Shown here: positions 10,207-62,915 of the stretch, one piece after another | Numbering within the stretch: position 1 is the first letter of the stretch | How the letters are laid out: every line of letters begins with the position of its first letter | Source of the DNA: an uncultured Piscirickettsiaceae bacterium | GTDB taxonomy: Bacteria; Pseudomonadota; Gammaproteobacteria; GCF-002020875 | Length of the DNA: 64,000 bases | NCBI GenBank assembly: GCA_964415865.1 | Contig: CAYQBY010000003.1 | Span: forward strand, 3,158 to 67,157 | Reading direction: 5' to 3' | Made by a program: the position numbers and the translations under genes | Notes under the pieces: generated by a model | Database searches by the model: none | What the model saw: only the letters and a program-made list of their open reading frames with translations | Told to the model about the DNA's origin: nothing

Positions 10207-10237
10207 AAGCTCAACCCTATTATTCTTAATCCCTGCC

Positions 10238-14881: not shown

Positions 14882-14888
14882 ATAATAA

Positions 14889-30842: not shown

Positions 30843-31328
30843 ATGAAAGTTACAAAAGACCGAGTCATAACCATTGAGTACAAGATGGTAAATCATAAAG
30901 GAGAGATTATTGATAGCACTGACAACAGTGATGCACTCTCATTCATTCAAGGATATGGATCAGTAATTCCTGCAATTGAGAAACAGATTGAAGGACACCA
31001 CACAGGAGATCGCCTTACTTTTGCTCTTAAACCAACAGATAGTTACGGAGAGAGAGATGAGTCAAAAGTTAAAGTAATACCAAAGAGCCAGTTCAATATG
31101 GATGGTGACCTTCATGTTGGCATGCAATTCTATACCCATAAAAATGGACATGATATTCCTGTCACAATTACTACTATAAATGATCAGCAAATAACCATTG
31201 ATGGAAACCACCCACTAGCTGGTGCTGATATCAATGTTGATCTGGTTATAGTTGATGTACGTGAGGCTATTGATGTTGAACTTGAAAGTGGTGAAGTTCA
31301 AACTGATGAGGATATATTCAATAACTGA
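30843..31328 (+). CDS. slyD: FKBP-type peptidyl-prolyl cis-trans isomerase (SlyD-like)
   Basis: N-terminal FKBP pattern (VITIEYKMVNHKGEIIDST...LSFIQGYGSVIPAIE) with IF insertion. Confidence 0.8.
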   Translation: MKVTKDRVITIEYKMVNHKGEIIDSTDNSDALSFIQGYGSVIPAIEKQIEGHHTGDRLTFALKPTDSYGERDESKVKVIPKSQFNMDGDLHVGMQFYTHKNGHDIPVTITTINDQQITIDGNHPLAGADINVDLVIVDVREAIDVELESGEVQTDEDIFNN

Positions 31329-32287: not shown

Positions 32288-33000
32288 TTCTCACCAATAT
32301 GGATAGCGGCAATTCCGAAGGTTAGATTGCTGTAGCTAACATTTGTGAATCCAGCCTGCTCCATCAACCTCTTCATCTCTTCCTGGTCAGGAAAGCGGCG
32401 GATAGATTCCACCAGATAATTGTAGGCAATTGGTGCCTTGGCTATCCATGCACCGAGTCGTGGGATCACATAGAAGGAGTGGAGATCATAAAATGGCTTG
32501 ATCAACCAGTGGGGTCTGGAGAACTCAAGACAATACATTTTCCCACCAGGCTTTAGCACGCGATTTATCTCGCGCAGAGCCTGCTCCATGTTTGTCATAT
32601 TACGGATACCAAAAGAGATGGTAAGACGGTCAACCGAGTTGTCATCCAATGGAATTGACTCCCCTGCTCCCACACGAAACTCCACCCCCTCTATTCCTCT
32701 CCTCTCACCCTCAGCCATCATCGCCTCACTGGGGTCTATAACAATAACTGTTCTCTCACCTGCTGCCATCTTTTCTGCTATATCACCAGTACCTCCAGCA
32801 AGGTCAACTATCAACTCGTTATTCTCTGGACTAACCATCTTTACCAGATGACGCTTCCAGAGACGGTGGATACCGAAACTCATCATATCGTTCATAAGAT
32901 CATAGCGGGGTGCTACTGCCTGAAAAACCGCGCGGATCTTCTCCTCGCGCTCCTGCTCGCCTACCTTTGAAAAACCAAAAGTCTGTGACAGCTTGTCCAT
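32284..33000 (-). CDS. ubiE: Demethylmenaquinone/ubiquinone C-methyltransferase
   Basis: UbiE/MenG signature (YDLMNDMMSFGIHRLWK) and SAM motif (DLAGGTGD). Confidence 0.9.
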   Translation of the reverse strand: MDKLSQTFGFSKVGEQEREEKIRAVFQAVAPRYDLMNDMMSFGIHRLWKRHLVKMVSPENNELIVDLAGGTGDIAEKMAAGERTVIVIDPSEAMMAEGERRGIEGVEFRVGAGESIPLDDNSVDRLTISFGIRNMTNMEQALREINRVLKPGGKMYCLEFSRPHWLIKPFYDLHSFYVIPRLGAWIAKAPIAYNYLVESIRRFPDQEEMKRLMEQAGFTNVSYSNLTFGIAAIHIGEK

Positions 33001-33842
33001 TATCTAATTGCCCCACCAAGATCATAGAGCGTACGGTGCACCCCGTGGCATCGTGCACAGACCGCAACCCCAACCTCACCCAATTTTCGACCAACCCCGC
33101 TGGAGTTTTTAGTAAGCAGAACAGATAGCTCTTCCAACAGAAATTCTGTCTCCTCACCAAGGATACGTTCTCGAGGATATTCGTCACGGTGACAGCCACT
33201 ACAGCTCTCACCCAGATCAATCACCCTAGTTGAGAACAGATCAAGATAATCTGTTGCGGCAGTTATGCGTCCGTCCTCAACTGCAATCTTGAAACGGTTC
33301 ATTGAGGTTGAAAGGTTATTCATTGTATCTTTGTAGGATAGCTCCTCCATGGTTTCACTATCCTCAACCATTACCTTCTCAAAATTTGGGGTTCTGTATA
33401 ACGCCGCAGTCACTGCCCGATAATCATCATGGCATGAACCACAGGTCATACCCACTTTTCTGAGGGCGCCGCCCATGGCCTCCCAATCTCTATCTTTTAT
33501 CACCTGCTCAAGTCGATTTATCCATTTTGGTTCAATCTCGTTACTCCACTCAGGCACCATCTCGGTAATGCTTCTATAGTCCTTGATAAATTGTGAACCC
33601 CACTTATCCAGCAGCTTCTCATTCTGCAGGGCCGTATACTCCTGAATTGCCAGCATGGAACGGCGCAGACGGAACATGGTATGGAGCCATACCTGCCTCT
33701 TATTTTGTGGTTTGTACCACTGAGCGATGGATGTTGGTGGTAGCTGAACTGACATCTCCTGTTCATAACTCTGCGTATCAGCACTGCAAAGTGGTGACAG
33801 AAAGAGTGTGACTGCAATAAAAGCGATATTTTTTATATTCAT
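33000..33842 (-). CDS. Periplasmic tri-heme c-type cytochrome of unknown family, inside the men operon
   Basis: Signal peptide; three CxxCH motifs (CGSCH, CSGCH, CARCH), each at the end of a ~80-aa predicted helical segment. Confidence 0.6.
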   Translation of the reverse strand: MNIKNIAFIAVTLFLSPLCSADTQSYEQEMSVQLPPTSIAQWYKPQNKRQVWLHTMFRLRRSMLAIQEYTALQNEKLLDKWGSQFIKDYRSITEMVPEWSNEIEPKWINRLEQVIKDRDWEAMGGALRKVGMTCGSCHDDYRAVTAALYRTPNFEKVMVEDSETMEELSYKDTMNNLSTSMNRFKIAVEDGRITAATDYLDLFSTRVIDLGESCSGCHRDEYPRERILGEETEFLLEELSVLLTKNSSGVGRKLGEVGVAVCARCHGVHRTLYDLGGAIR

Positions 33843-34714
33843 AGGTAAAGTCCAAATATCATCAAGATTCCAAACAGAAGCTGGAGCTGAGCCGTCTGTG
33901 CCAACAGTTTATTTAATCCTCTACCATGAGGTAAAAGATAGATTTTTCTCCCCAGGTAGAGTGAAACCGGTAGTGCCGGCATCATAACCCATATCAATAA
34001 CGGCTTCTGAAGTTGTTCAGACAAAATCAGAAGTATCAGGAATGGGGTTAATAAAAGTGTGAGATAGAGAACTCTGGTAAGCGACATTCCTAAACCAACT
34101 GCCAGGGTGTTTTTTCCAACAACACGATCAGTATCAATATCTCGATAGTTGTTTACAACTAGAACTGCTGCAGCCAACAGCCCTATCGCGGACCCTGCCA
34201 ATAGAGCTGTAGAGCTCCACTGCAGAGTAACCAGGTAGGTAGTACCCATAACTGCAGCAACACCAAAAAAGAGAAAGACAAATAGCTCTCCCATAAATGT
34301 ATAGGCAATGGGGATGCGGCCTCCAGTATAGGCAAGCCCCGCAGCAATTGATGACAGCCCAATCAACAAGATTGGTAGCCCACCAACCACAACCAGGGAT
34401 ATCCCTATTATAAAAGCTGCTGAAAAAGATCCAATTGCAGCCTTTTTAACACCATTCGCACTCAACAACCCTTCCGAAACCATCCGCTTTGGACCAAGAC
34501 GATCTGGACCATCAGCTCCACGTAGCGCATCCCCAGCATCATTGTATAGATTTGTCCCAACCTGAATCAGAAGAGCCGCCAGAAGAATAAGGGTGAGTAG
34601 CAGAGGTTTAAACAGGGCACTCTCTGTATGAGCTATAACTGCTCCCAGAAGTACCGGAATTACCGCCATTGAGAGGGTTTTTGGACGTACGGCATGTAAC
34701 CATGGGGAGTTCAT
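33839..34714 (-). CDS. menA: 1,4-dihydroxy-2-naphthoate polyprenyltransferase (UbiA family)
   Basis: UbiA-family NDAGD motif; 8-9 TM helices. Confidence 0.85.
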   Translation of the reverse strand: MNSPWLHAVRPKTLSMAVIPVLLGAVIAHTESALFKPLLLTLILLAALLIQVGTNLYNDAGDALRGADGPDRLGPKRMVSEGLLSANGVKKAAIGSFSAAFIIGISLVVVGGLPILLIGLSSIAAGLAYTGGRIPIAYTFMGELFVFLFFGVAAVMGTTYLVTLQWSSTALLAGSAIGLLAAAVLVVNNYRDIDTDRVVGKNTLAVGLGMSLTRVLYLTLLLTPFLILLILSEQLQKPLLIWVMMPALPVSLYLGRKIYLLPHGRGLNKLLAQTAQLQLLFGILMIFGLYL

Positions 34715-34812: not shown

Positions 34813-35160
34813 ATGAAAAAAAGCTACCTTATACTCTGTTTTGCACTACTAACAGCACCAGTTCACGCTGTCAGTGACCATCAACTTGAGAAGGTAAAAC
34901 AGTTGGGGGAGCTCAACGGGATTGCTCTTAATTGTGGATATATTGATGAGACCCGCAGAATGAAACGAGCTATGGTATCAACTGTCCCCAAGATCAGGGT
35001 TATTGGGATAGCTTTTGATGAGGCAACTAACAGCTCCTTTCTCTCAACAATCAAATCGGGAAATTCATGTCCTACAGAGAAGTCACTTAGCCAACAGGTT
35101 GACAGCAGTATTGAGCAGTTGGAAACAGTATTTATGAATCATCAGGAGAAACTATTTTGA
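34813..35160 (+). CDS. Small secreted protein, unknown
   Basis: Signal peptide; 115 aa; ATGA-coupled to the downstream fusion gene. Confidence 0.4.
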   Translation: MKKSYLILCFALLTAPVHAVSDHQLEKVKQLGELNGIALNCGYIDETRRMKRAMVSTVPKIRVIGIAFDEATNSSFLSTIKSGNSCPTEKSLSQQVDSSIEQLETVFMNHQEKLF

Positions 35161-36587
35161 GGCTGCTCTCCCTATTTGTACTGCTCATCTTCTCCTCAAC
35201 CACATGGAGTGGCGAGCCTCTCAGGATTGTTACCACCATAAAACCAATTCATTCAATCCTCTCTGGTCTACTGGCAGGGACACGGCCTCCCGAACTACTT
35301 GTAGATAATCAGCAATCACCATATACAGTAACTCTCTCAAGATCCAAGCAACATACCATCAGGGATGCTGATATGGTCGTATGGGTGGGGCCAGAACTGG
35401 AGCAGTTTATGGTTAAGCAGATAGAACAGCTTGGCCCGAAGACAACCCTCTTTACCCTGCTTGATAATGAAGAGATCAAGGTTCTTCAGTCACGCTGGAA
35501 CAAGGGGAAACGTGATCCATTCTTATGGCTTGATAGCCGCAACATACTTATCCTTACTGATGAGCTTTTCAGAGCACTAATCAAGCTTGATCCAGAGCGC
35601 AGATCTCTATATGAAAATAACCGACGCAACCTGTTAAGCAGACTGGCAGAACTTGACCGCCGCCTGGAGTATGGATACAGAGGGCTGAAGAGCGGTATTG
35701 GCATGGCCTACTACGATACCTTGCAGTATTTTGAACAGGCATATGCACTAAAAATCAGGGGGGTGGTTGCAGAGTCACCAACAACACCAGTTAGTGGACT
35801 CTCTTTTCTACAGAGCAGGGCCAAACTCAAAAGTGGTGACTATAGCTGTCTGTTGACTGAACAGCAGATCGATCCTGATGACTTATCTCTGCTTACCAAT
35901 GAGATCACACTCAATATTGGTCTTTTGGACAGTTTTGGATCAAAAATAGATGCTGGAGAAGATCACTACTTCAAATTGATGGAGCAGAATACAGCTACTA
36001 TCAAACAGTGCTTAAAGTACGTGGATGATTCAATTGCAGAGGAGGTAGCAAAAGAGGTCATCCAAAACAGCACCAGTAATTCCACCACAACCAGCTATAT
36101 TGGTGGCAAGTTCATGTTACGTGATCATCACGGTAAACTATTTACCGACCAGGATATGCTGGGGGCATTCCATCTGGTCTACTTTGGATATACCTTCTGT
36201 CCTGATGTCTGCCCCACCTCACTACTCACCATCTCCTCAGCACTGAACAAACTTGGGGATGATGCCAAACAGATCCAGCCATACTTCATAACGGTTGACC
36301 CAGCCAGAGACAGACCAGAGGCGCTAAATACCTATGTTAACTATTTTCACCCGACCCTGATTGGACTAACTGGCACTCAGTCCATGATTGACCGGGTTGC
36401 CCGAATGTATCATGTGAAGTATGAGAAGGTTATTGACGAATCAAGAGACCCTGATCAATACATCATGGATCACTCATCAGGGGTTTTTGTGATGGCGCCC
36501 AGTGGAGAGTTCATAACTAAATTAGCTCACGGAATATCAGCTGATGATATGGCTGCCCGCATCAGAGATGTCCTGTCAAAACAATAG
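35157..36587 (+). CDS. Fusion protein: degenerate ZnuA/TroA-like periplasmic solute-binding domain plus a C-terminal SCO1/SenC copper-chaperone domain
   Basis: N-terminal TroA fold pattern with two canonical metal-binding His replaced (DPFLWLD for DPHxWLD; YDTLQYF for HDAFGYF); C-terminal CPDVCP CxxxC motif and conserved DHSSGVFV His. Confidence 0.65.
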   Translation: MRLLSLFVLLIFSSTTWSGEPLRIVTTIKPIHSILSGLLAGTRPPELLVDNQQSPYTVTLSRSKQHTIRDADMVVWVGPELEQFMVKQIEQLGPKTTLFTLLDNEEIKVLQSRWNKGKRDPFLWLDSRNILILTDELFRALIKLDPERRSLYENNRRNLLSRLAELDRRLEYGYRGLKSGIGMAYYDTLQYFEQAYALKIRGVVAESPTTPVSGLSFLQSRAKLKSGDYSCLLTEQQIDPDDLSLLTNEITLNIGLLDSFGSKIDAGEDHYFKLMEQNTATIKQCLKYVDDSIAEEVAKEVIQNSTSNSTTTSYIGGKFMLRDHHGKLFTDQDMLGAFHLVYFGYTFCPDVCPTSLLTISSALNKLGDDAKQIQPYFITVDPARDRPEALNTYVNYFHPTLIGLTGTQSMIDRVARMYHVKYEKVIDESRDPDQYIMDHSSGVFVMAPSGEFITKLAHGISADDMAARIRDVLSKQ

Positions 36588-38367: not shown

Positions 38368-39054
38368 ATGTCTATATCCACTGTTTTTGAGCGCGAGCTT
38401 CGCCGCTCCCCACTATTTTCCTCTCTATCCAAAGAGGCCATGGAAGATATTATAGACTCATCCGAACTTATCAGAAAAAAACCTAATGAGGTTCTGTTTC
38501 TGCAGGGAGATGCCGCTACCCATTTCTATGTTGTACGGACCGGCACCATTAGACTCTACCTGCTTACTCCAGATGGCGATGAAAAAACCGTAAATATCCT
38601 GCAGGCCGGCAACTCTTTTGCTGAGGCAATGGTGTTTATGGATGGCGGCAAATACCCAGTCAACAGCCAGTTTCTAGAGGACGGAGAGATATTCTCCTTC
38701 AACAGTAAGGTATACAAAAATATCATGCGCACAGATCCTGAAACAACCTTCTCGATCATGGCCGATCTTAGTATGCGACTACAGAACTACGTGCAGGAGA
38801 TCGAGCAGCTCTGCCTGCATAATGCCACCCACAGACTAATGAGTTACCTGCTTACCTTTATTCCTGCCGAGGACAATGAGGGAACCTTTCAATTACCAAC
38901 CCAAAAAAGCGTCATTGCGTCCAGACTCTCAATTCAGAGAGAGACCTTCTCGCGCATTCTTGGAAAACTGAAAAAGAGAAAGATGATTGATGTTAATGGC
39001 AACGAGGTTCATATCCTCGATGCTAAAATGATGCGCAGCGCTCTAGTTGATTGA
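38368..39054 (+). CDS. dnr: CRP/FNR-family transcriptional regulator, Dnr/NnrR-type
   Basis: cNMP-binding domain plus C-terminal HTH; no N-terminal Cys cluster. Confidence 0.75.
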   Translation: MSISTVFERELRRSPLFSSLSKEAMEDIIDSSELIRKKPNEVLFLQGDAATHFYVVRTGTIRLYLLTPDGDEKTVNILQAGNSFAEAMVFMDGGKYPVNSQFLEDGEIFSFNSKVYKNIMRTDPETTFSIMADLSMRLQNYVQEIEQLCLHNATHRLMSYLLTFIPAEDNEGTFQLPTQKSVIASRLSIQRETFSRILGKLKKRKMIDVNGNEVHILDAKMMRSALVD

Positions 39055-39402
39055 TACCACACTAATGTTCCCAACCATCTCAGGATGTGGGCCACATAGA
39101 TAACTATAGACCCCCTCTTGGGTGAAAGTATGTTCCCAGCTCTCCCCGGGAAAGAGATACTCTGACCCAACCAGATCACCTCCACCATAACCATTCAGTT
39201 TTACTGAATGATACTGCCTCTTCTCATGGTTGACCCAGCGTACTGTATCACCAGGATTGATCGTCACAGTTTGCGGTTGGTATCTGTAATCAATAATCTC
39301 AACCTCAACCACCCTTGGTTGAGGTATATCATTCGAACATCCTGACACAAAAAAAAGGCCTCCCAGCAGAAGCATGAGAGGCCTGTTATTAATCATTGTC
39401 AT
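39043..39402 (-). CDS. Blue-copper cupredoxin (amicyanin/plastocyanin-like) lipoprotein
   Basis: Lipobox FFVSGC; type-1 Cu ligands H..., CGPHPEM (C-x2-H-x2-M as in amicyanin). Confidence 0.7.
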   Translation of the reverse strand: MTMINNRPLMLLLGGLFFVSGCSNDIPQPRVVEVEIIDYRYQPQTVTINPGDTVRWVNHEKRQYHSVKLNGYGGGDLVGSEYLFPGESWEHTFTQEGVYSYLCGPHPEMVGNISVVSIN

Positions 39403-39403: not shown

Positions 39404-41095
39404 TCACCATTTTACAGCATTGATCTCCGCTTTTGGATTGTCAAATCCGAGCTTGTAACCAAATGAGACATGGTGGAAGCGTCCATTTGTATAGTCATCG
39501 TGGATGGCGAAACCAAAGTTATAGACCTGGTCCAGTACCAGAGTTAGGTCATCTACATCACCAGAACTGAGCTTGCGCTTCATATCTACCACCCAGTTAC
39601 CCTGATCATCTCTCTTGCCCTCAAACTCAAGGTCACCACTATTACCACTCATATCACGATCAGCAAGTATCATTCCATCCTCAGCCTGCTTACTACCCGA
39701 CTTGTAGCGCACAAGATCCATGATCTTTTTCTGATCCAGTGCCGCCTTAATCTCTTCAGGCTTTCTCAGCTTGTCCCAGCCACCACGCTTCTTGCCACGA
39801 CGCCCCTTCACCTCAATCTTGGTACGTGACTCCTTGGTGTATTTGGTTACATCTGTACCCTCTGGCTGATGAGGCATACCGTTGGCATCATGGTGACAAG
39901 TTCCCCAACAACCTGCTCTATCCGCAAACTCAACCTCATCTGTAGCAAACATCATTGCCAGCTTGACAGGGTTCTCAGGATCCATCCGCTCAGAATCTGC
40001 AACTGGCTTATACTCTGTTGCTTCATTATGGTGGGCAACATCATGCCAGATAAACCGCATATATAGATTCTCACCATCATGTGCGGCCTTCACCATCACC
40101 GGGATTCCACCTCGCTTGCCAGGAATTGGAGTGGGCTCCATCGCCTTCTCATGCTTTCCACCAACAATACGGTCACCCATAACCTTGGCCTCTTTATCAT
40201 GACAGGTAAAGCATCTATCTCCACCCTTTTTAAAGGCATTTGCCCCACCATGATCTGTTCCATTAAGCACCCACTCTATGGATGTCTGTCCAGGATAGAT
40301 AACATAGATCTCTCTCCCTACAATAGATGACCAATCACCAGCCTTGGCTGATGCTGCCGCCTTGGCTGCTGCCTCAGCTGCCGCCTTCTCTGCTGCGGCT
40401 TTGGCTGCTGCCGCCGCCACTGGATCAAGATCAGCAAGCTGGAACAGTTTTGCCCCAGGTTTCGCCAGTGACTCGTCAGGGGCCTCCATAGCCTCCTTCT
40501 CCTCATCACTCAACAGCTTATGAACCCCTTTGTGCGCAACACCCTTATGACAGTCAATACAGGTCTGTCCCGATCTAAGAGCATTGGTATGTTGATTCAT
40601 AGCACGAGGTTTCTGCATGTCTCCATTCATAGCCTCAAAATTGTGGCAGTTCCGACACTCTCTGGAATCGGTACTCTTCATCGAACGCCATACATTTTTT
40701 GCCAACTGCAGACGTTTCGCATCAAACTTTTCAGGGGTATCAATAGTCCCCAGCACTTTATGCAACACCTCGTTACTGGCCTGAATCTTTCTGGCTACCT
40801 TATGTACCCATGGATCAGGTACATGACAATCCGAACAGGTTGCCCGTACTCCAGTACGATTCGCATAGTGGATAGTCTTCTGGTACTCCTTGTAAACATT
40901 GTCCTCCATCTCATGACATGAGATACAGAACTCAAGAGTATTGGTAACCTCCATTGCCGTATTGAATCCACCCCAGAAGATAATTCCAAACAGGGCAAAA
41001 ACCAGGCCTCCTCCAAGTGTCGTATTGAGGATCAAACGACGTGAGAACATCAACTTCATTCTCTCTTTGAAACTTGGTCTCTCAGGAATTGGCAT
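39404..41095 (-). CDS. nirT: NapC/NirT-family membrane tetraheme cytochrome fused to a ~370-aa C-terminal periplasmic domain with additional heme motifs
   Basis: N-terminal TM anchor plus four CxxCH (CISCH, CSDCH, CRNCH, CIDCH); Ala/Lys-rich linker; then CFTCH and CWGTCH; start chosen at MPIPERPS so that the nirS1 terminator is not included. Confidence 0.7.
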   Translation of the reverse strand: MPIPERPSFKERMKLMFSRRLILNTTLGGGLVFALFGIIFWGGFNTAMEVTNTLEFCISCHEMEDNVYKEYQKTIHYANRTGVRATCSDCHVPDPWVHKVARKIQASNEVLHKVLGTIDTPEKFDAKRLQLAKNVWRSMKSTDSRECRNCHNFEAMNGDMQKPRAMNQHTNALRSGQTCIDCHKGVAHKGVHKLLSDEEKEAMEAPDESLAKPGAKLFQLADLDPVAAAAAKAAAEKAAAEAAAKAAASAKAGDWSSIVGREIYVIYPGQTSIEWVLNGTDHGGANAFKKGGDRCFTCHDKEAKVMGDRIVGGKHEKAMEPTPIPGKRGGIPVMVKAAHDGENLYMRFIWHDVAHHNEATEYKPVADSERMDPENPVKLAMMFATDEVEFADRAGCWGTCHHDANGMPHQPEGTDVTKYTKESRTKIEVKGRRGKKRGGWDKLRKPEEIKAALDQKKIMDLVRYKSGSKQAEDGMILADRDMSGNSGDLEFEGKRDDQGNWVVDMKRKLSSGDVDDLTLVLDQVYNFGFAIHDDYTNGRFHHVSFGYKLGFDNPKAEINAVKW

Positions 41096-41127: not shown

Positions 41128-41162
41128 ATAAAAAAGCCGGCACCTGATATGCAGGTGCCGGC
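41128..41162 (-). terminator. Rho-independent terminator downstream of nirS copy 1
   Basis: GCCGGCACCTG-atatg-CAGGTGCCGGC stem followed by a T-run on the minus strand. Confidence 0.75.
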
Positions 41163-41173
41163 CACTACTCTAC

Positions 41174-42808
41174 TTAGGTTACGTGGTTAGTTCTACTGTA
41201 AACGTTGAACTTACCAGTTGGTGTGGTCAGTCCCTTGATACGAGCCTTCTCTTCAAGAGTGTCCGCATCATAGACTACGATCTCACCAGTTGGGTTACCG
41301 TTATCAGTACGGTTCCAGACAGAGACCCAGGCCTCACTTCCATCCTTGTTAAACTCAATATGGAGTGCCGCCTTACCCTTCTCTTCAGTTACACGGATGG
41401 TCTTAACGATCTCACCGGTCTCCTTGGAGATAACCTGTACAGACTGCTGGATCTCAGGCTCAGGATTCTTGACCTGATCTGCCCATACGTACTTGGAGTT
41501 TGGATGAGTACGGATAAACGCACCTGCTCCATCAGTCTCGATCTCACGTACGATCTTCCACGCCTTGCTTGGTGTACCAGCTGGATCATTACCCCATACG
41601 GTTACCATGCCTGTTCCCAGATGGACTGTAGCACCTACAGGACCATGCTTTGGATCATCCCAGTTTGCACCAGGACCAGGGTGTGGCTTCTTGCCAGTGG
41701 TATCAATCATCGCCTCAAGCTTGCGGGTCTTGGTATCAACTACAACCATCTTGTTGGATGCATTTGCCGCAATCTGGAAGTAACGTCCGGTTGGATCAAA
41801 GAATCCATCATGAAGATATTTAGCTGAATCAATCTTGGTGATTCGAAGATTCTCGATATCAGTGTAGTCAACCTGCCACATCTGTCCCAGCTCCTTGACC
41901 GCAACCAGGAAGGTTGGCTCGTTTGGAGTGGTGTAGACCGCAGCTACGCGTGACTCATTTACATATTCACCATCAACATTTACCCCGCGAGTGGATACTA
42001 CCTTCAGCGGCTCCATGGTCTTGGCATCAGCAATTACGAAGTGTGGTGGCCAGTAGCCTCCACCAATTACATATTTACCGTCACCAGAGATTGCAACATC
42101 ACGTGCATCGTATGCAATCTGGGTCTTGGCAACCAGCATGCTTCCTGGCTGTTGCCATAGATCGATCTTACTCATTACACCATCACGACCCATTGTGTAC
42201 CAGAAACGTCCGGCAACACCATTCTCTGGGTGCTCAGTCTCATGATGCTCAGTGGCCTTGATTACGTGTACTGCATAACCAGTATCAATATGGTCGATAA
42301 TCTCTTTGGTATCACCATCGATTACTGCTGCCTTACCGGCATCACGCTCGATTACTACGAAGAAGTTCTCCCAATTGCGGCCATGCAGTGGCTTGGTTGG
42401 ATAGTCCTTAGGATCGACAAATACCTCTGTGCGCTCCTTCATCATAGCCAGTGACATCTCTGGTGGAACTGGTGGCTCCAACTGGATGTAGGTGGCCATC
42501 ATTGAGATCTCTTCTTTACTGAAAATATCATCAAAGTTGTTCATTCCACCGTCTGTTCCGTAAGTCAGGATCTTCTCTAGACGCTCCTGACCTAGTTCAC
42601 GAGTATTTTTTGGCTCCAGGCTCTTGCCTGTCGCTCCCTTTCTCAGTACACCGTGACAACCTGCACAGCGTTGGAAATAGAGCTTCTTGGAGTGCTCAAA
42701 ATCCGCCTCTGATAGTGATGGCTCAGCACTTACTGTAGTACCGACCCCGCCCATTGCAACACCCACTGCAAGACTTAACGCAGTCAATGATAATTTCTTC
42801 ATATTCAT
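41174..42808 (-). CDS. nirS: Cytochrome cd1 nitrite reductase NirS, copy 1 (Sec signal peptide, soluble periplasmic)
   Basis: Signal peptide MKKLSLTALSLAVGV...; c-heme CAGCH; d1 eight-bladed propeller sequence; start taken at MNMKK. Confidence 0.92.
   Translation of the reverse strand: MNMKKLSLTALSLAVGVAMGGVGTTVSAEPSLSEADFEHSKKLYFQRCAGCHGVLRKGATGKSLEPKNTRELGQERLEKILTYGTDGGMNNFDDIFSKEEISMMATYIQLEPPVPPEMSLAMMKERTEVFVDPKDYPTKPLHGRNWENFFVVIERDAGKAAVIDGDTKEIIDHIDTGYAVHVIKATEHHETEHPENGVAGRFWYTMGRDGVMSKIDLWQQPGSMLVAKTQIAYDARDVAISGDGKYVIGGGYWPPHFVIADAKTMEPLKVVSTRGVNVDGEYVNESRVAAVYTTPNEPTFLVAVKELGQMWQVDYTDIENLRITKIDSAKYLHDGFFDPTGRYFQIAANASNKMVVVDTKTRKLEAMIDTTGKKPHPGPGANWDDPKHGPVGATVHLGTGMVTVWGNDPAGTPSKAWKIVREIETDGAGAFIRTHPNSKYVWADQVKNPEPEIQQSVQVISKETGEIVKTIRVTEEKGKAALHIEFNKDGSEAWVSVWNRTDNGNPTGEIVVYDADTLEEKARIKGLTTPTGKFNVYSRTNHVT
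41178..42721. repeat. Direct repeat unit A (1544 bp, 100% identical to 42890..44433), mature nirS coding region
   Basis: Identical spurious ORFs in the six-frame track at a constant +1712 offset; base-by-base boundaries checked. Confidence 0.95.
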
Positions 42809-42843
42809 AGTTCTCCTAAACAAAACAAAAAACCTCCTCTTGT

Positions 42844-42876
42844 AAAAAACCCCTTTAGCCAATCAGGTTAAAGGGG
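42844..42876 (-). terminator. Rho-independent terminator downstream of nirS copy 2
   Basis: CCCCTTTA-loop-TAAAGGGG stem followed by TTTTTT on the minus strand. Confidence 0.7.
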
Positions 42877-42885
42877 TCTCTTTTA

Positions 42886-44643
42886 TCAAGTTACGTGGTT
42901 AGTTCTACTGTAAACGTTGAACTTACCAGTTGGTGTGGTCAGTCCCTTGATACGAGCCTTCTCTTCAAGAGTGTCCGCATCATAGACTACGATCTCACCA
43001 GTTGGGTTACCGTTATCAGTACGGTTCCAGACAGAGACCCAGGCCTCACTTCCATCCTTGTTAAACTCAATATGGAGTGCCGCCTTACCCTTCTCTTCAG
43101 TTACACGGATGGTCTTAACGATCTCACCGGTCTCCTTGGAGATAACCTGTACAGACTGCTGGATCTCAGGCTCAGGATTCTTGACCTGATCTGCCCATAC
43201 GTACTTGGAGTTTGGATGAGTACGGATAAACGCACCTGCTCCATCAGTCTCGATCTCACGTACGATCTTCCACGCCTTGCTTGGTGTACCAGCTGGATCA
43301 TTACCCCATACGGTTACCATGCCTGTTCCCAGATGGACTGTAGCACCTACAGGACCATGCTTTGGATCATCCCAGTTTGCACCAGGACCAGGGTGTGGCT
43401 TCTTGCCAGTGGTATCAATCATCGCCTCAAGCTTGCGGGTCTTGGTATCAACTACAACCATCTTGTTGGATGCATTTGCCGCAATCTGGAAGTAACGTCC
43501 GGTTGGATCAAAGAATCCATCATGAAGATATTTAGCTGAATCAATCTTGGTGATTCGAAGATTCTCGATATCAGTGTAGTCAACCTGCCACATCTGTCCC
43601 AGCTCCTTGACCGCAACCAGGAAGGTTGGCTCGTTTGGAGTGGTGTAGACCGCAGCTACGCGTGACTCATTTACATATTCACCATCAACATTTACCCCGC
43701 GAGTGGATACTACCTTCAGCGGCTCCATGGTCTTGGCATCAGCAATTACGAAGTGTGGTGGCCAGTAGCCTCCACCAATTACATATTTACCGTCACCAGA
43801 GATTGCAACATCACGTGCATCGTATGCAATCTGGGTCTTGGCAACCAGCATGCTTCCTGGCTGTTGCCATAGATCGATCTTACTCATTACACCATCACGA
43901 CCCATTGTGTACCAGAAACGTCCGGCAACACCATTCTCTGGGTGCTCAGTCTCATGATGCTCAGTGGCCTTGATTACGTGTACTGCATAACCAGTATCAA
44001 TATGGTCGATAATCTCTTTGGTATCACCATCGATTACTGCTGCCTTACCGGCATCACGCTCGATTACTACGAAGAAGTTCTCCCAATTGCGGCCATGCAG
44101 TGGCTTGGTTGGATAGTCCTTAGGATCGACAAATACCTCTGTGCGCTCCTTCATCATAGCCAGTGACATCTCTGGTGGAACTGGTGGCTCCAACTGGATG
44201 TAGGTGGCCATCATTGAGATCTCTTCTTTACTGAAAATATCATCAAAGTTGTTCATTCCACCGTCTGTTCCGTAAGTCAGGATCTTCTCTAGACGCTCCT
44301 GACCTAGTTCACGAGTATTTTTTGGCTCCAGGCTCTTGCCTGTCGCTCCCTTTCTCAGTACACCGTGACAACCTGCACAGCGTTGGAAATAGAGCTTCTT
44401 GGAGTGCTCAAAATCCGCCTCTGATAGTGATGGTCCGGATGCAGCCACCTTGGCTGGTGCTGCTGGGGCTGGAGCAGGGGCTGGTGCCGCTGCTGGAGCT
44501 GGTGCTGGTGCTGGTGCTGGTGCTGCAGTTTTTGATGCACCTGAATCACCAGAGTCACCACACCCTGATAATCCCAGAGTCATGACTATTGCCAGACTCA
44601 GGGTTGCACCCTTCTTGAAACTCCTCTTCTTACCATCGATCAT
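42886..44643 (-). CDS. nirS: Cytochrome cd1 nitrite reductase NirS, copy 2, lipoprotein form with a Pro/Ala-rich linker
   Basis: Lipobox LGLSGC followed by (PA)n linker; then identical to copy 1 from SLSEADFEH to the C-terminus. Confidence 0.9.
   Translation of the reverse strand: MIDGKKRSFKKGATLSLAIVMTLGLSGCGDSGDSGASKTAAPAPAPAPAPAAAPAPAPAPAAPAKVAASGPSLSEADFEHSKKLYFQRCAGCHGVLRKGATGKSLEPKNTRELGQERLEKILTYGTDGGMNNFDDIFSKEEISMMATYIQLEPPVPPEMSLAMMKERTEVFVDPKDYPTKPLHGRNWENFFVVIERDAGKAAVIDGDTKEIIDHIDTGYAVHVIKATEHHETEHPENGVAGRFWYTMGRDGVMSKIDLWQQPGSMLVAKTQIAYDARDVAISGDGKYVIGGGYWPPHFVIADAKTMEPLKVVSTRGVNVDGEYVNESRVAAVYTTPNEPTFLVAVKELGQMWQVDYTDIENLRITKIDSAKYLHDGFFDPTGRYFQIAANASNKMVVVDTKTRKLEAMIDTTGKKPHPGPGANWDDPKHGPVGATVHLGTGMVTVWGNDPAGTPSKAWKIVREIETDGAGAFIRTHPNSKYVWADQVKNPEPEIQQSVQVISKETGEIVKTIRVTEEKGKAALHIEFNKDGSEAWVSVWNRTDNGNPTGEIVVYDADTLEEKARIKGLTTPTGKFNVYSRTNHVT
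42890..44433. repeat. Direct repeat unit B (1544 bp, identical to 41178..42721)
   Basis: As above. Confidence 0.95.
44458..44530. repeat. Simple-sequence repeat (GCTGGT/GCTGGG)n encoding the Pro-Ala linker of lipoprotein NirS
   Basis: gctggggctggagcaggggctggtgccgctgctggagctggtgctggtgctggtgctggtgctg. Confidence 0.85.
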
Positions 44644-45730: not shown

Positions 45731-46069
45731 ATGAAATTTTTATCTATCCTGCTGATACCACTACTATCTTTTACTCCACTGCTCTCTAATGCAGCGGGCG
45801 AAGAGCCGCTCACTGAGCAGAGAAAAGGCGAGATTACTCACATGGTTAAACAGGATTGTGGCTCTTGTCATGGGCTAACCCTTAAGGGAGGGTTAGGCCC
45901 AAGCCTCGATCCGGTACGACTCAACCTCTATCCTGAAGGTTTTTTGGAGACCACTATATTTCATGGCCGCCCCGGAACCCCAATGCCACCATGGGCCCCT
46001 ATTTTAACTGGTAGTGAGATTAGCTACATTGCCACTCAATTATTGAAAGGTAGCTGGTATGAAAAGTAA
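45731..46069 (+). CDS. nirC: Monoheme cytochrome c (NirC/c55X-like)
   Basis: Signal peptide; CGSCH. Confidence 0.7.
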   Translation: MKFLSILLIPLLSFTPLLSNAAGEEPLTEQRKGEITHMVKQDCGSCHGLTLKGGLGPSLDPVRLNLYPEGFLETTIFHGRPGTPMPPWAPILTGSEISYIATQLLKGSWYEK

Positions 46070-47240
46070 CTTATTGATTTCCATTGTTATTCTACTGGGA
46101 ACTGTTCATACCTCACTATCTGCCTGTGAGACCAGAGGAACTGGTGATCTGGGCATAGTAATCGAGCGTGCCAGCGGATCCATTCAGATTATCGACACTA
46201 CAGAACGTGCCTCACTAGGACGCATAGAGGGGCTTGGTGACCTCTCTCACGCCTCTGCCGTCTACTCACGCGACGCCCGTTATGCCTTTATCTTTGGCAG
46301 GGATGGCGGCCTCACCAAGATTGATATTCTCTGCAAAAAGATAGAAAAACGTATTATCCAGGGCGGCAACAGTATTGGTGGGGCAATTTCTCAGGATGGA
46401 AAATGGGTTGCTGTCTCAAACTATGAGCCTGGTGGTGTCCGTATTTTTAACAGCAGAACCCTTGAGCTGGTGGCCGATATCGAAGCAACCGCACTATCAG
46501 AGCAGAAGAGATCACGAACAGTTGGTCTAGTAGATGCCCCCGGAAACCATTTTGTATTCAGTCTGTTTGACAGTGGTGAGATCTGGATTATCAAGATGAG
46601 TGATGACGGCTCATCATCCATCAAAAAGTTCACCGATATCGGCAGACAACCATATGATGGCTTAATCACCCCGGATGGACGTACCTACATTGCCGGGCTG
46701 TTTGGTGAGGATGGGCTCGCCCTGCTTGATCTCTGGCACCCGGAAAATGGGGTGCAACGAATTCTTGACCACTATGGACGTGGTGAACAGAAACTCCCTG
46801 TCTACAAGATGCCCCATCTTGAGGGGTGGGCAGAGGCCGGGGATAAAACATTTCTGCCGGCTGTAGGTCGCCACGAACTACTGGTGGTAAATAGCGGAAG
46901 CTGGCAAGAGAGCGGGCGTATTCAGGTACATAGCCAGCCAGTATTTGCCATAAGCCGCCCTGATGGACGACAGATCTGGGTAAATTTTGCGTTCCCACAC
47001 AATGATACCCTGCAAATTATTGACGCAGAGAGTCTAAAGATAATCCACCAGATACAACCCGGGAAAGGTGTACTGCATATGGAGTTTACACCCCGTGGCG
47101 AGGAGGTCTGGGTCTCGATACGCGACAAAAATCTTGTAGAGATCTATGACACAGAGACATTTGCACTCCTGAAGAGCCTGCCAATGGAAACCCCCAGCGG
47201 CATCTTCTTTACCAACAGGGCCGGACAGATCGGGCTTTGA
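46059..47240 (+). CDS. nirF: Heme d1 biosynthesis protein NirF (cd1-like beta-propeller, putative lipoprotein)
   Basis: Propeller similarity to the NirS d1 domain without a c-heme; LSAC lipobox. Confidence 0.8.
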   Translation: MKSNLLISIVILLGTVHTSLSACETRGTGDLGIVIERASGSIQIIDTTERASLGRIEGLGDLSHASAVYSRDARYAFIFGRDGGLTKIDILCKKIEKRIIQGGNSIGGAISQDGKWVAVSNYEPGGVRIFNSRTLELVADIEATALSEQKRSRTVGLVDAPGNHFVFSLFDSGEIWIIKMSDDGSSSIKKFTDIGRQPYDGLITPDGRTYIAGLFGEDGLALLDLWHPENGVQRILDHYGRGEQKLPVYKMPHLEGWAEAGDKTFLPAVGRHELLVVNSGSWQESGRIQVHSQPVFAISRPDGRQIWVNFAFPHNDTLQIIDAESLKIIHQIQPGKGVLHMEFTPRGEEVWVSIRDKNLVEIYDTETFALLKSLPMETPSGIFFTNRAGQIGL

Positions 47241-49395: not shown

Positions 49396-50538
49396 ATGTT
49401 TCGAATTAGTCAATACATGAAGGAGTTGCGTACTCCCACTCCTATCCAGCCAACCCACTCCCCGTCTGGACCTGTGGTGATCTGGAACCTGATCAGACGC
49501 TGTAATTTAACCTGTAAACACTGCTACTCCATCTCTGCTGATACCGATTTCAAGGGTGAACTATCAACCCAAGAGGTCTTCACGACCATGGATAACCTTA
49601 AACAGTATGGGGTAAAGGTATTGATACTCTCTGGCGGAGAGCCATTGATGCGGCCAGATATATTCGAGATCTCTCACCACGCCAAGGAGATGGGGTTTTA
49701 TGTTGGTCTCTCCACCAATGGAACATTGATAGATTATGACAACATAGATCAGATTGCAGGTGCTGGCTACGACTATGTAGGGATCAGTATTGATGGAATG
49801 CAAGAGACCCACGATCAGTTTCGTCGCAAGGACGGGGCCTTTGAGGAGTCCATGAGAGGGATCCAGCTATGTATGCAACATCAGATAAAGGTTGGTCTGC
49901 GATTTACCCTTACCCAGGATAATGAGAATGAACTTTCACAGATGTTGAAGATGCTGGAGATTAAAAATATTGAGAAGTTTTATCTGTCACACCTCAACTA
50001 TGCAGGACGTGGCAACAAAAATCGTAAGGATGACACCTATCACCAGACCACAAGACGGGCGATGGATTTGCTGTTTGAGGCAGCCATGCAGTCTGTACAG
50101 CACGGGATCAAACGAGAGTATGTGACCGGCAATAATGATGCAGATGGTGTCTACCTACTACACTGGGCAAGAAAAAATTATCCTGAACATGCTGACCATA
50201 TTGAACAAAAACTGCTGCAGTGGGGAGGCAATCAGTCTGGGGTGAATATCTCGAATATTGATAACCTTGGAAATGTGCATCCAGATACGATGTGGTGGGA
50301 CTATAATCTTGGCAATGTCAGGGATAGACCTTTTTCTGAGATCTGGGAGGATACCAGTGACCCACTTATGGCTGGCCTTAAACAGCAACCACGTGCTGTC
50401 AAGGGTCGCTGCGGAGAGTGTGCATACCTCAAAATATGTGGTGGCAATACCAGAGTACGAGCCCAGCAACTCTCTGGTGACGTATGGGCCGAGGACCCCG
50501 GCTGTTACCTTACTGATGAGGAGATAGGGATTTCATGA
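49396..50538 (+). CDS. nirJ: Radical SAM heme d1 biosynthesis protein NirJ
   Basis: CNLTCKHC CxxxCxxC radical SAM motif; SPASM-like C-terminal Cys. Confidence 0.85.
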   Translation: MFRISQYMKELRTPTPIQPTHSPSGPVVIWNLIRRCNLTCKHCYSISADTDFKGELSTQEVFTTMDNLKQYGVKVLILSGGEPLMRPDIFEISHHAKEMGFYVGLSTNGTLIDYDNIDQIAGAGYDYVGISIDGMQETHDQFRRKDGAFEESMRGIQLCMQHQIKVGLRFTLTQDNENELSQMLKMLEIKNIEKFYLSHLNYAGRGNKNRKDDTYHQTTRRAMDLLFEAAMQSVQHGIKREYVTGNNDADGVYLLHWARKNYPEHADHIEQKLLQWGGNQSGVNISNIDNLGNVHPDTMWWDYNLGNVRDRPFSEIWEDTSDPLMAGLKQQPRAVKGRCGECAYLKICGGNTRVRAQQLSGDVWAEDPGCYLTDEEIGIS

Positions 50539-52070
50539 AAATAACAGGCCACATATCGGTAGCTCCAAAACTTTCGCAACGATTAATATTACTAGTCTCT
50601 CTACTACTTCCACTAGCGCCCCTGCAGGCTGCAGAGCAGACAACGACTCTTGCCAATGAGGATCTCTACCAGCAGAACTGTGCCGCCTGCCATGGTGCCG
50701 ATCGACTTGGGCTTGTAGGTCCTGCCCTGCTTCCAGAGAACCTGAAACGACTACGCAAGAAAGCGGCCATTGAGACTGTCACCAATGGACGTCCTGCCAC
50801 TCAGATGCCCCCTTTTGGAGAGAAGCTAAGTGGTGAACAGATCAGTGCCCTTGTATCTCATATCTACACCCCGCTAATTGATATTCCTGATTGGGGAGAG
50901 AGTGAGATCAGAAAAAGCTATATAAGTCACACCTCGCTCACTGAACTGCCAACAGAACCACAACATGGTGCTGACCCACTAAACCTCTTTTTTGTGGTTG
51001 AGGCAGGTGACCACCACGCTACTATTCTGGATGGTGACAAACTTGAACCTATCCACCGCTTCAAGACCAGATTCGCACTCCATGGTGGCGCCAAATATTC
51101 GCCAGATGGACGTTTTGTCTACTTTGCCTCACGTGATGGATGGGTAACCCTGTTTGATCTCCATAGCATGCAGATGGTTGCCGAGATAAGAGCCGGCATC
51201 AACACCCGTAACATTGCCGTCTCCAGTGATGGCAAAACTGTTGCTGTTGGCAACTACCTTCCACATAACCTGGTGCTGTTAAATGCCACAGACCTCTCTC
51301 TAAAGAGTGTAATTCAGGTGACCTCTGGCAGAGAGAGCTCGAGGGTTAGCGCAGTATATGATGCTACACCTCGTAATAGTTTTATCTTGGCACTTAAGGA
51401 TCTACCGGAGGTATGGGAGATCCCCTTCCCCACATCTTCTCAACCAGAACCTGCAATTCGAAAAATCAGGCTAAAAGAGACCCTGGATGATTTTTTCTTT
51501 GACCAGCAATATCGTCATCTAATTGGGGCATCCAGGAAAAGTCAGGGACAGGTCATTGACCTTGATCTAGGCAAGAAGATTGCCGATATTGCCCTTGAAG
51601 GAATGCCCCACCTTGGATCAGGGATCAGCTGGAGACGTGGCAGTCAGACCGTCATGGCCTCCCCAAATCTACGCAAAAGTGCCCTCACTGTTATTGATGT
51701 CAACAACTGGAAAACTGTTGAAGAGATCAAAACCAAGGGGCCTGGCTTCTTTATGCGTAGCCATGAGAATAGCCGTTATGCATGGGCTGATGTCTTCTTT
51801 GGCCCCAATCGTGACCTGGTCCATATCATAGACAAGGAGACGCTCGAGATCATAAAAACAGTTCGTCCAGCCGCTGGTAAGACCGCTGCCCATATCGAGT
51901 TTACCCGTGATGGACGTTATGCCCTGCTCAGTATCTGGGAGGAAGATGGTGCCCTAATTGTCTATGATGGAGACACCCTGGAGGAGGTCAAACGGATCCC
52001 AATGAAAAAACCAGTGGGTAAATATAACGTCTACAATAAGATCACAAAATCTGAAGGTACCAGCCATTAA
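50535..52070 (+). CDS. nirN: NirN (cytochrome c plus cd1-like propeller; dihydro-heme d1 dehydrogenase)
   Basis: CAACH c-domain plus d1-type propeller; terminal gene of the nir cluster. Confidence 0.8.
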   Translation: MKITGHISVAPKLSQRLILLVSLLLPLAPLQAAEQTTTLANEDLYQQNCAACHGADRLGLVGPALLPENLKRLRKKAAIETVTNGRPATQMPPFGEKLSGEQISALVSHIYTPLIDIPDWGESEIRKSYISHTSLTELPTEPQHGADPLNLFFVVEAGDHHATILDGDKLEPIHRFKTRFALHGGAKYSPDGRFVYFASRDGWVTLFDLHSMQMVAEIRAGINTRNIAVSSDGKTVAVGNYLPHNLVLLNATDLSLKSVIQVTSGRESSRVSAVYDATPRNSFILALKDLPEVWEIPFPTSSQPEPAIRKIRLKETLDDFFFDQQYRHLIGASRKSQGQVIDLDLGKKIADIALEGMPHLGSGISWRRGSQTVMASPNLRKSALTVIDVNNWKTVEEIKTKGPGFFMRSHENSRYAWADVFFGPNRDLVHIIDKETLEIIKTVRPAAGKTAAHIEFTRDGRYALLSIWEEDGALIVYDGDTLEEVKRIPMKKPVGKYNVYNKITKSEGTSH

Positions 52071-62902: not shown

Positions 62903-62915
62903 TATTAATTACCCC

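Follow-up and report, generated by a model that had tools for sequence, protein, structure and literature searches.

NirS, a nitrite reductase of the cytochrome cd1 type, is regarded as freely soluble in the periplasm, and its gene serves as a standard marker of denitrifiers. Here, we analyse a tandem pair of nirS genes in a 64,000-nucleotide (nt) stretch of DNA from an uncultured Piscirickettsiaceae bacterium (contig CAYQBY010000003.1, positions 3,158 to 67,157; hereafter, the window). The upstream gene, lipo-nirS, encodes a NirS with a predicted lipoprotein signal peptide followed by a long Ala/Pro-rich spacer, and the downstream gene, sol-nirS, encodes a NirS with a Sec signal peptide; behind these targeting modules, the two coding sequences are identical over 1544 nt. 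We consider it likely, with a probability of roughly 0.7, that the duplication is old and that the two nirS bodies have been homogenised by gene conversion, the targeting modules being kept distinct.

In its textbook form, NirS is the soluble periplasmic product of one gene. The proteins of the window share with Pseudomonas aeruginosa NirS the same two-domain architecture, the haem ligands and the catalytic His residues; the departure from the textbook is a second gene with a lipobox and a long spacer. Furthermore, mature NirS of the window begins ~25–30 residues later than that of P. aeruginosa, and the region around what we take to be Tyr10 of the latter is without a counterpart. Thiobacillus denitrificans is said to have a membrane-bound cd1 enzyme; our literature search gave no confirmation of it.

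For nitrite reduction at the end of a lipid anchor, a described case is found in Neisseria. The azurin Laz carries an Ala/Pro-rich spacer, the H.8 region. Both Laz and AniA, a copper nitrite reductase of the NirK type, are attached to a membrane of this diderm bacterium by an N-terminal lipid, and lipoprotein NirK-type nitrite reductases are known in Neisseria and in Bacillus/Geobacillus (PMC6277709, PMC3475470). By analogy, lipo-NirS most probably works like AniA and Laz. The likeness consists of the lipobox and the spacer only: lipo-NirS is not of the cupredoxin/NirK fold, whereas AniA and Laz have a cupredoxin-type fold unrelated to cd1 and come without a soluble twin or concerted evolution, and AniA is reported to be surface-displayed. 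Within the nir system itself, experiments in P. aeruginosa have shown that NirF is a lipoprotein attached to the membrane and interacting with NirS (PMC3694632). NirF has a beta-propeller of the d1 type and, in the window as well, a lipobox; however, it is a maturation factor and not a reductase, with neither a cytochrome c domain nor a long Ala/Pro spacer.

On the evolutionary side, tufA/tufB, the rRNA operons and the amoCAB genes of ammonia oxidisers are examples of concerted evolution. As with the nirS genes of the window, their paralogues are closer to each other than to orthologues, synonymous sites included, and the tracts are limited to the region of homology. Their products are functionally equivalent; in contrast, the conversion proposed for the window halts just where its two different targeting modules meet the body. 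Multiple nirS copies are known from other denitrifiers. The paralogues of Dechloromonas, Thauera and Halomonas are, to our knowledge, divergent and differently regulated, and a lipid anchor does not tell them apart. More than one nirS per genome is documented for Dechloromonas aromatica (nirS1/nirS2), Thauera and Halomonas (PMC6593283, PMC12756365, PMC8014003).

None of our literature searches on lipoprotein or membrane-bound NirS, nirS gene conversion and SUP05/Thioglobus nirS describes the twin arrangement, and they gave no report of near-identical nirS copies maintained by conversion; among the papers covered, those on the nir system document a lipid anchor for NirF and not for NirS. What is new is the predicted soluble/tethered NirS twin in diderm marine Gammaproteobacteria, its probable maintenance by a conversion that halts at the module border, and the occurrence of the arrangement in uncultivated sulfur oxidisers that denitrify and are ecologically dominant. 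As a system, the locus is of no new kind, and the functional steps that go beyond the sequence are inferred. Abundant uncultivated marine sulfur oxidisers (the BS-GSO2 clade and its relatives, and a Thioglobus metagenome-assembled genome, MAG) encode a predicted lipid-tethered NirS beside the soluble one. The pair would also be a clean natural example of conversion that ends at the border of a targeting module, with an identical body sent to different addresses.

Two nirS genes and their shared body

Two intact head-to-tail nirS genes with 100% identity over 1544 nt had been claimed in the original prediction, and our base-by-base comparison, together with a repeat search, reproduced its coordinates and offset exactly: 41178–42721 equals 42890–44433 without a break, at an offset of 1712. 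The length of this repeat is far outside chance expectation, and the composition profile of the window has no break at the duplication. Both copies lie on the minus strand, an orientation which had not been stated before and by which lipo-nirS is the upstream gene and sol-nirS the downstream one. Each is contained in a long open reading frame (42886–44643, with 585 amino acids (aa), and 41174–42862); the downstream frame starts at ATG 42802 or 42808, giving a sol-nirS of 542 or 544 aa. The identity begins at base 1 of a Pro codon, Pro71 after the lipoprotein linker and Pro28 after the Sec signal peptide, from where the shared sequence opens with PSLSEADFEH. It runs as far as base 2 of the final sense codon (ACT/ACC), beyond which the copies have different stop codons (TGA and TAA) and different 3′ flanks.

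At the sequence level, all criteria tested place both proteins as bona fide members of the NirS family. Both match Pfam Cytochrome_CBB3 and Cytochrom_D1, the latter with E-values of 1.1e-117 and 8.9e-118 over profile positions 2–367/368, and both match the NirS structures of P. aeruginosa and Paracoccus pantotrophus (E 1e-132 to 1e-135). The CxxCH motif (CAGCH) and the Met ligand of the GM.N motif are conserved relative to P. aeruginosa NirS, as are, in the phmmer alignment to 1bl9, the proximal His182 and the distal His327/His369 of haem d1 (P. aeruginosa numbering). The C-terminal domain is all-beta in an AlphaFold model based on a 30-sequence alignment, with a predicted local distance difference test score (pLDDT) mostly of 80–96 and a predicted template modelling score of 0.78. 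Compared with P. aeruginosa NirS, 11 additional residues rich in His and Glu (TEHHETEHPEN; ~residues 226–236 of the 585-aa NirS) are inserted behind the d1 His ligand, and a segment resembling them is also found in the consensus of the 30-sequence marine-clade NirS alignment.

The lipo and Sec forms of NirS co-occur in six lineages of marine Gammaproteobacteria. They are the lineage of the window, to which two metagenome scaffolds (L104 and L105) with the same tandem are 100% identical; Candidatus Thiopontia autotrophica (L001/L090); an uncultured Piscirickettsiaceae MAG (L006–L010); the lineage of L012/L091–L094; a Thiotrichales MAG (L002–L005/L095), in which the genes are not in tandem and lie ~2.6 kb apart, with nirT::EB_dh and a haemerythrin gene between them; and an uncultured Ca. 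Thioglobus MAG (L079), with a 402-nt spacer. A seventh lineage (P0005, L108–L110) has the lipo form, without a Sec copy on its contigs of 5.5–6.7 kb, in a different gene context. The closest named relative, with 93% nt identity in nirS, is a Black Sea MAG of Ca. Thiopontia autotrophica, whose two proteins (MBC8519503.1 and MBC8519504.1) are both annotated "c-type cytochrome"; current annotation thus calls lipo-NirS nothing more specific. This MAG represents the uncultivated BS-GSO2 clade, whose sulfur oxidisers have a complete denitrification pathway (PMC8359478). Among GTDB species representatives, the best full-length NirS match is 80% identical.

Comparing the window with L001 gives nt identities of 91.4% and 92.6% for the two N-terminal modules, close to the 93.1% of the body; inside the window, the lipo and Sec modules (50.6%) are unrelated. 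Among lineages, lipo modules align with each other, as do Sec modules, and the N-terminal modules behave as orthologues in at least four of the six lineages. Because a pair with homologous modules predates the lineage splits, the duplication would be old and not very recent.

The bodies follow a concerted pattern. Within the six genomes, the mature domains of the paralogues are 99.9, 99.9, 99.5, 100, 97.5 and 89.0% identical at the nt level, against 70–93% between lineages. Third-codon-position identity is 76–100% within genomes (99.8–100% in the window, L001 and L079) versus 44–83% between lineages. A comparison of the window with L001 gives 106 sites that set the two copies of one genome apart from the two of the other, and a single site, the wobble base of the last codon, that separates paralogues; the 95 changed codons comprise 83 synonymous and 12 non-synonymous changes. 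Strain differences also fall at the same sites in both copies: 31 of 31 for L095 versus L002, 53 of 53 for L092 versus L012 and 11 of 11 for L090 versus L001. Likewise, five strain variants of the window/Thiopontia pair have identical amino-acid substitutions in both copies of each. Where paralogues do differ, long identical tracts are left between the differences. Such a tract measures 836 nt in L002 (38 differences) and 215 nt in L006 (170 differences), against 99.9th percentiles of 386 and 106, respectively, under random placement.

It is reasonable to hypothesize that the homogenising mechanism is recombination between the copies. NirS is strongly conserved (72% mean column identity in the 30-sequence alignment), and the identity could in principle have been kept by purifying selection on the protein alone, with no recombination between copies. 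However, synonymous sites have been homogenised as well, for which selection on the protein cannot account: third positions are practically the same within the window, L001 and L079 and far from it between lineages, and the 83 synonymous codon changes between the window and L001 are common to both copies. We find this explanation barely credible and rejected it on the synonymous-site data.

A very recent duplication or ongoing gene conversion had both been offered before as the origin of the perfect identity. The concerted pattern speaks for the latter, and the presence of the pair in six lineages speaks against the former, in which the lipoprotein 5′ end would have been gained at or after a young tandem duplication. 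A head-to-tail repeat with perfect identity over 1544 nt is indeed the classic signature of such an event, and a single Sec-type copy is found at the same position in four syntenic relatives. However, the same pair, with the same modules and gene order, occurs in lineages whose nirS bodies are 7–30% apart; the window and L001 share the arrangement, yet differ at 106 sites in both copies together; and the copies of L002 and L006 have diverged in blocks (37–38 and 170 differences) between long identical tracts. A recent duplication is very improbable, and we rejected it on these comparative data, i.e., the six lineages and the co-changing sites. Our preferred reading is still an old duplication with bodies homogenised by conversion.

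Paralogue differences in the L002 family fall into three blocks, at mature-domain positions 156–171, 297–531 and 1368–1479. The middle block is missing in L003, where the Sec copy equals the lipo copy at 23 of 23 sites, and two other groups are missing in L005. Such presence and absence of blocks between population samples may be either snapshots of conversion tracts or the result of bulge removal by the assembler.

Several points weigh against an old, homogenised pair. Bulge removal could mimic the block patterns of L003 and L005 in place of real conversion alleles. Four syntenic relatives (L011, L013, L014 and L051) have only the Sec form at this position; the history of the locus therefore includes gain, loss or transfer. 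The N-terminal module of Thioglobus (L079) is weakly similar to those of the other lineages, and a second, independent origin of the lipo module is possible there; if so, the twin arrangement evolved at least twice. The motif GCGDSGD, which follows the lipobox, was also found in unrelated lipoproteins in a metagenome scan and is not proof of homology alone. The exactness of the nirS identity may have been slightly inflated by short-read assembly. Finally, one contig from another sample (L106; JGI 3300007514, Ga0105020_1000197; locus 3001–4758) has a single hybrid nirS, in which the body follows the lipo 5′ end and is closed by the 3′ junction of the Sec copy. This contig is otherwise identical to the window over coding and downstream sequence, with 1 mismatch, upstream of lipo-nirS, and its single copy may be either an assembly collapse or a real deletion allele, formed by RecA-mediated recombination between the repeats. 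The caveat of an assembly artefact, given with the original prediction, was well placed, as a contig of the same strain shows a single hybrid copy.

An artefact could take two forms: one nirS per genome with a mis-join, or real copies whose identity comes from de Bruijn collapse. The window is identical to metagenome scaffolds (L104 and L105) and so probably derives from short-read assembly, in which near-identical repeats merge into one graph node that is traversed twice and gives identical copies by construction; many database NirS fragments terminate at contig edges, and the one-copy contig L106 would fit as well. On the other hand, a 168-nt unique middle segment (hairpin, ribosome-binding site and Sec signal) is joined to the 3′ end of the repeat on its left and to the 5′ end on its right, and a k-mer assembler is unable to invent these junctions. 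The exact proteins of the window are found on many long metagenome contigs in near-equal counts (lipo form, 34; Sec form, 23 + 12), and many independent metagenome assemblies yielded this two-copy contig. Moreover, copies differ at 7, 37–38 and 170 sites in three other lineages, which is reproduced in independent assemblies, and the ~2.6 kb between the copies of L002 hold other genes. A purely artefactual tandem is unlikely, and we rejected it on the junctions, the contig counts and the diverged or separated pairs of other lineages. Collapse cannot create the concerted pattern either, because it hides a few per cent at most, not 7–30%. As a practical matter, the 1.5-kb nirS repeat can break or collapse short-read assemblies, and nirS-based abundance estimates would double-count these organisms.

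Targeting modules and the predicted lipid anchor

The modules were classified with a lipobox rule of the PROSITE PS00013 type: [LVI][ASTVI][GAS]C, with the Cys at positions 15–35, a basic n-region and a hydrophobic h-region. A Sec signal in one copy and a lipobox with a PA-rich linker in the other had been predicted, and the rule indeed holds for the upstream copy alone, where AIVMTLGLSGC ends in Cys28 and K/R occur among the first seven residues; the Sec copy fails it. It holds for all seven lipo-NirS N-termini available (the window and six others). In six aligned lipo-NirS N-termini, G27, C28, D30, S31, G32 and D33 are invariant, and the Cys is also present in the Thioglobus copy. The conserved region of the lipo module is G-[LI]-[ST]-G-C-[GS]-D-S-G-D with the preceding hydrophobic segment, and the Sec peptide conserved across lineages is MKKLSLTALSLAVGVAMGG. 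We predict that lipo-NirS is lipid-anchored via Cys28.

Between Cys28 and Pro71, the DNA of the spacer is a hexamer repeat (44461–44525), and the spacer varies in frame from 38 to 66 aa between lineages. Residues 1–68 of lipo-NirS have a pLDDT below 50 and no secondary structure in the AlphaFold model, in which the c-domain and the propeller are confident. Two peptides characterise the forms: VAASGPSLSEADFEHSK, a tryptic junction peptide unique to the lipo form, and EPSLSEADFEHSK, the predicted semi-tryptic N-terminus of the mature Sec form. NirF (SLSAC) and a cupredoxin (FVSGC) of the same cluster also conform to the lipobox rule. Altogether, three periplasmic parts of the nitrite-reducing module (NirS, NirF and the cupredoxin) are predicted to be lipid-anchored.

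A metagenome scan with an alignment of the N-terminal module returned only the L001, L012 and L002 lineages again, along with the unrelated GCGDSGD lipoproteins. A database search with the N-terminal 161 residues, which is not a measure of prevalence, returned mostly short contig-end fragments and two further lipobox sequences. Further away in the family, lipid-anchored NirS-like proteins appear, from their N-termini, to be a recurrent undescribed theme. In a search of 1.84 billion cluster representatives, the lipobox rule holds for 11 of the 57 full-length NirS-family representatives among the best 150 hits (P0272, P0278, P0279, P0284, P0289, P0295, P0300, P0307, P0334, P0362 and P0396). Such homologues include uncharacterised MAG proteins of Acidimicrobiales (HEC11562.1) and Polyangiaceae (MBE7486085.1). 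Several have, as in lipo-NirS, a disordered low-complexity spacer before the cytochrome c domain; in contrast, their identity is 36–47%, and several carry an extra cytochrome c or cupredoxin domain.

Alternatively, the lipobox extension may not be used as an anchor, the protein being processed by signal peptidase I, left with an uncleaved signal or poorly translated, so that the pair would amount to dosage redundancy. A Cys within a signal peptide can be a coincidence, and GDSGD after the Cys is frequent in unrelated lipoproteins and not diagnostic of homology. We regard this alternative as quite unlikely. The lipobox and its Cys are found in 7 of 7 lipo-NirS despite varying neighbours and in-frame spacer indels; lipo-NirS is without an internal Met able to yield a secreted cytochrome; the lineage P0005 (L108–L110) has the lipo form and no Sec copy on its 5.5–6.7 kb contigs; and NirF and the cupredoxin of the cluster carry lipoboxes, NirF being a shown lipoprotein in P. 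aeruginosa (PMC3694632).

The likely course of events is the following. After an old duplication of nirS, the upstream gene would have acquired a lipoprotein signal and a disordered Ala/Pro-rich spacer of ~40 residues, and the downstream gene would have retained the ancestral Sec signal peptide. The 1.5-kb mature domains would have been repeatedly homogenised by homologous recombination between the copies, in a conversion tract limited by the ends of the homology, i.e., the codon next to the targeting module on one side and the stop codon on the other. Because the tract ends at these limits, the bodies of the isoforms would stay identical while the targeting modules evolve separately. As for the products, Cys28 of lipo-NirS would be diacylglyceryl-modified, with cleavage by signal peptidase II, and the enzyme would be suspended from a membrane by a flexible tether. 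For the Sec form, release into the periplasm is expected. At ~0.3 nm per residue, a 42-residue tether reaches at most ~12 nm.

The membrane that holds the anchor is a separate question. In E. coli, the inner-membrane retention signal is an Asp at +2. Residues +2 to +4 of lipo-NirS are GDS in the window and SDS or FGG in relatives, with no Asp at +2. About half of the outer-membrane lipoproteins of E. coli have disordered N-terminal linkers needed for Lol sorting (bioRxiv 10.1101/2021.01.05.425367). Since lipo-NirS has no Asp at +2 and a long disordered linker, the default by E. coli rules, which may not be those of the host, would be the inner leaflet of the outer membrane, in parallel to the lipid-anchored denitrification proteins of Neisseria (PMC6277709). 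A position next to NirT/Nor, as was proposed with the original prediction, is not established, and these rules favour the outer membrane instead. An inner-membrane tether would also make functional sense, because a NirS–cNOR complex is known for the soluble P. aeruginosa enzyme (PMC10256718; PDB 5GUW).

As cd1 NirS forms homodimers and both genes encode the same body, a lipidated and a non-lipidated subunit could pair in mixed dimers. Both isoforms would also stay compatible with the shared haem d1 insertion machinery, electron donors and nitric oxide (NO) reductase. We tentatively conjecture, and consider it doubtful in its entirety, that the pair is a dedicated two-address device, in which conversion is tolerated or favoured for the sake of mixed dimers and of shared maturation and electron supply, and the tether holds a defined fraction of NirS at the membrane, quite possibly the outer one. 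If true, such a device would shape the site of NO release in the envelope of BS-GSO2/Thiopontia and SUP05 relatives, which dominate among the sulfur-oxidising denitrifiers of oxygen-deficient seas. A real tether, of whatever purpose, would bear on how NO, a toxic intermediate, is handed over from nitrite reductase to NO reductase in the envelope.

Expression signals and the nir gene cluster

FNR/DNR-type sites number 5 in the window versus 0.37 expected, and two of them lie upstream of lipo-nirS (Table 1). Equivalent boxes were found upstream of lipo-nirS in all relatives examined. In the lineages with short spacers (67–83 nt), no FNR/DNR box was found before sol-nirS; where the copies are separated (L079 and L002), each has its own. 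A scan for sigma-70 promoters gave fewer sites than shuffled sequences, none of them in front of sol-nirS or nirT.

Each nirS gene had been credited with its own rho-independent terminator. A GC-rich hairpin with a T-run does follow each gene; independent termination, however, is doubtful, with the next gene starting at most 90 nt after each hairpin and neither an FNR/DNR box nor a promoter-like site between. The hairpin at the lipo-nirS/sol-nirS junction is present in 4 of 4 short-spacer tandem lineages, the one of L006 without a T-run, and its base changes between the window and L001 preserve stem pairing. The hairpins do not correspond to a described element, as an Rfam scan of the whole window returned no known RNA family. 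They are more likely leaky terminators or mRNA-stabilising elements inside one operon. The most likely start of transcription is a promoter upstream of lipo-nirS that depends on DNR/FNR. Because the next genes follow within 90 nt without a promoter-like site, the arrangement probably corresponds to a single DNR-dependent operon, lipo-nirS > sol-nirS > nirT::EB_dh > cupredoxin, read through both hairpins, which would attenuate transcription or stabilise upstream segments of the mRNA and so tune the relative amounts of the products.

Genes for haem d1 biosynthesis adjoin nirS, divergently upstream: nirE, a nirC-like gene, nirF, nirD/L-like, nirJ and nirN. The NirD/L-like product is a helix-turn-helix (HTH) protein. 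On the other side, nirT::EB_dh is syntenic beside nirS in all related loci, and its product, a fusion of a NapC/NirT tetrahaem quinol dehydrogenase with an EB_dh-like haem domain, is the presumed membrane electron input to NirS. We know of no described counterpart of this fusion in classic nirSTB clusters. Its two domains are joined by an Ala-rich linker, AAAAKAAAEKAAAEAAAKAAASAKA, and the EB_dh-like part has CFTCH and a CWGTCH motif. The cupredoxin, with the Cu-site motif CGPHPEM, is a candidate electron carrier. Past the cupredoxin and a Crp/Fnr-family regulator, genes for a haemerythrin and a dihaem cytochrome c are found further along.

Table 1. Features of the nirS tandem and its surroundings (window coordinates).
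Feature	Position	Strand	Evidence and remarks
Crp/Fnr-family regulator, Dnr/Nnr-like candidate	38368–39054	+	Pfam cNMP_binding and HTH_Crp_2; NCBIfam all below cut-off
Amicyanin/plastocyanin-like cupredoxin, lipobox FFVSGC	39043–39402	-	Pfam Copper-bind; NCBIfam plastocyanin/amicyanin below cut-off
nirT::EB_dh, NapC/NirT tetrahaem quinol dehydrogenase fused to EB_dh-like haem domain	39404–41095	-	Cytochrom_NNT 2.6e-72; EB_dh 2.6e-28; NCBIfam napC_nirT
Hairpin and T-run after sol-nirS	41135–41163	-	Free energy -25 kcal/mol, z -5.7; ~40 nt upstream of nirT::EB_dh start
sol-nirS, cd1 nitrite reductase with Sec signal peptide, 542 aa	41174–42802	-	Open reading frame; Pfam; 1.3e-135 to P. aeruginosa NirS (1bl9/1nir); alternative ATG 42808
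Repeat copy A, mature-domain coding sequence of sol-nirS	41178–42721	-	100% identical to 42890–44433
Sec signal peptide MKKLSLTALSLAVGVAMGGVGTTVSA	42725–42802	-	Predicted cleavage before Glu27; orthologous to signal peptide of single-copy NirS in related MAGs
Hairpin and T-run after lipo-nirS	42849–42877	-	Free energy -21 kcal/mol, z -5.8 versus shuffles
lipo-nirS, cd1 nitrite reductase with predicted lipoprotein signal peptide and Ala/Pro-rich spacer, 585 aa	42886–44643	-	Open reading frame; Pfam E 1.1e-117; orthologous N-terminal module in relatives
Repeat copy B, mature-domain coding sequence of lipo-nirS	42890–44433	-	100% identical to 41178–42721
42-residue spacer, Gly/Asp/Ser then Ala/Pro-rich, GDSGDSGASKTAAPAPAPAPAPAAAPAPAPAPAAPAKVAASG	44434–44559	-	67% Ala+Pro
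Predicted lipoprotein signal peptide, residues 1–28, MIDGKKRSFKKGATLSLAIVMTLGLSGC, lipobox LSGC, Cys28	44560–44643	-	Matches the PS00013-type rule
FNR/DNR-type palindrome TTGACCTAGGTCAA	44772–44785	.	Centred 135 nt upstream of lipo-nirS ATG
Second FNR/DNR-type palindrome TTGATATGAATCAA	44865–44878	.	Divergent nirS/nirE control region
nirE	44870/44915–45724		Pfam; divergent from nirS
nirC-like	45731–46069		Pfam
nirF, lipobox SLSAC	46059–47240	+	Pfam
nirJ, radical-SAM	49396–50538		
nirN	50535–52070		

Other genes in the window

The rest of the window holds narGHJI, narK, narXL, a nos cluster and menaquinone genes. The nos cluster (69–10906, plus strand) contains cytochrome c genes, genes for nosG/nosH-like Fe-S proteins, nosD, nosF and nosY, and its layout resembles that of clade II (atypical) nosZ clusters. 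One of its proteins, with 403 aa (3564–4775), has no Pfam or NCBIfam match and is possibly nosB-like. The menaquinone genes are interleaved with nos, nar and nir at 10896–16259 and 31298–34714 and comprise menC, menD, menB, menF, a menE-like gene, ubiE/menG, a gene for a 280-aa cytochrome c'-like protein and a UbiA/menA-like gene; this interleaving is unusual for a gammaproteobacterial denitrification island.

Canonical norCB was not recognised within the window. Two genes for haem-copper-oxidase-like subunits I are present, at 55126–56481 (plus strand) and 61166–63458 (minus strand), and could encode unusual NO reductases or oxidases. One of their COX1 matches is weak (E 8e-7, below cut-off) and the other moderate (8e-61, with NCBIfam far below cut-off). 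The second of these genes (61166–63458) has a short COX2-like gene as its neighbour, along with two genes resembling CtaA, one resembling CtaB, and SCO1. The N-terminal domain of a 522-aa protein (57668–59236, minus strand) is of the cytochrome b type; this protein also has 4Fe-4S ferredoxin motifs and a FlpD/HdrA-like C-terminus. Finally, a fusion of a ZnuA-like periplasmic metal-binding domain with a SCO1/SenC copper chaperone (35157–36587, plus strand) is kept beside the nir cluster in L001 and L006.

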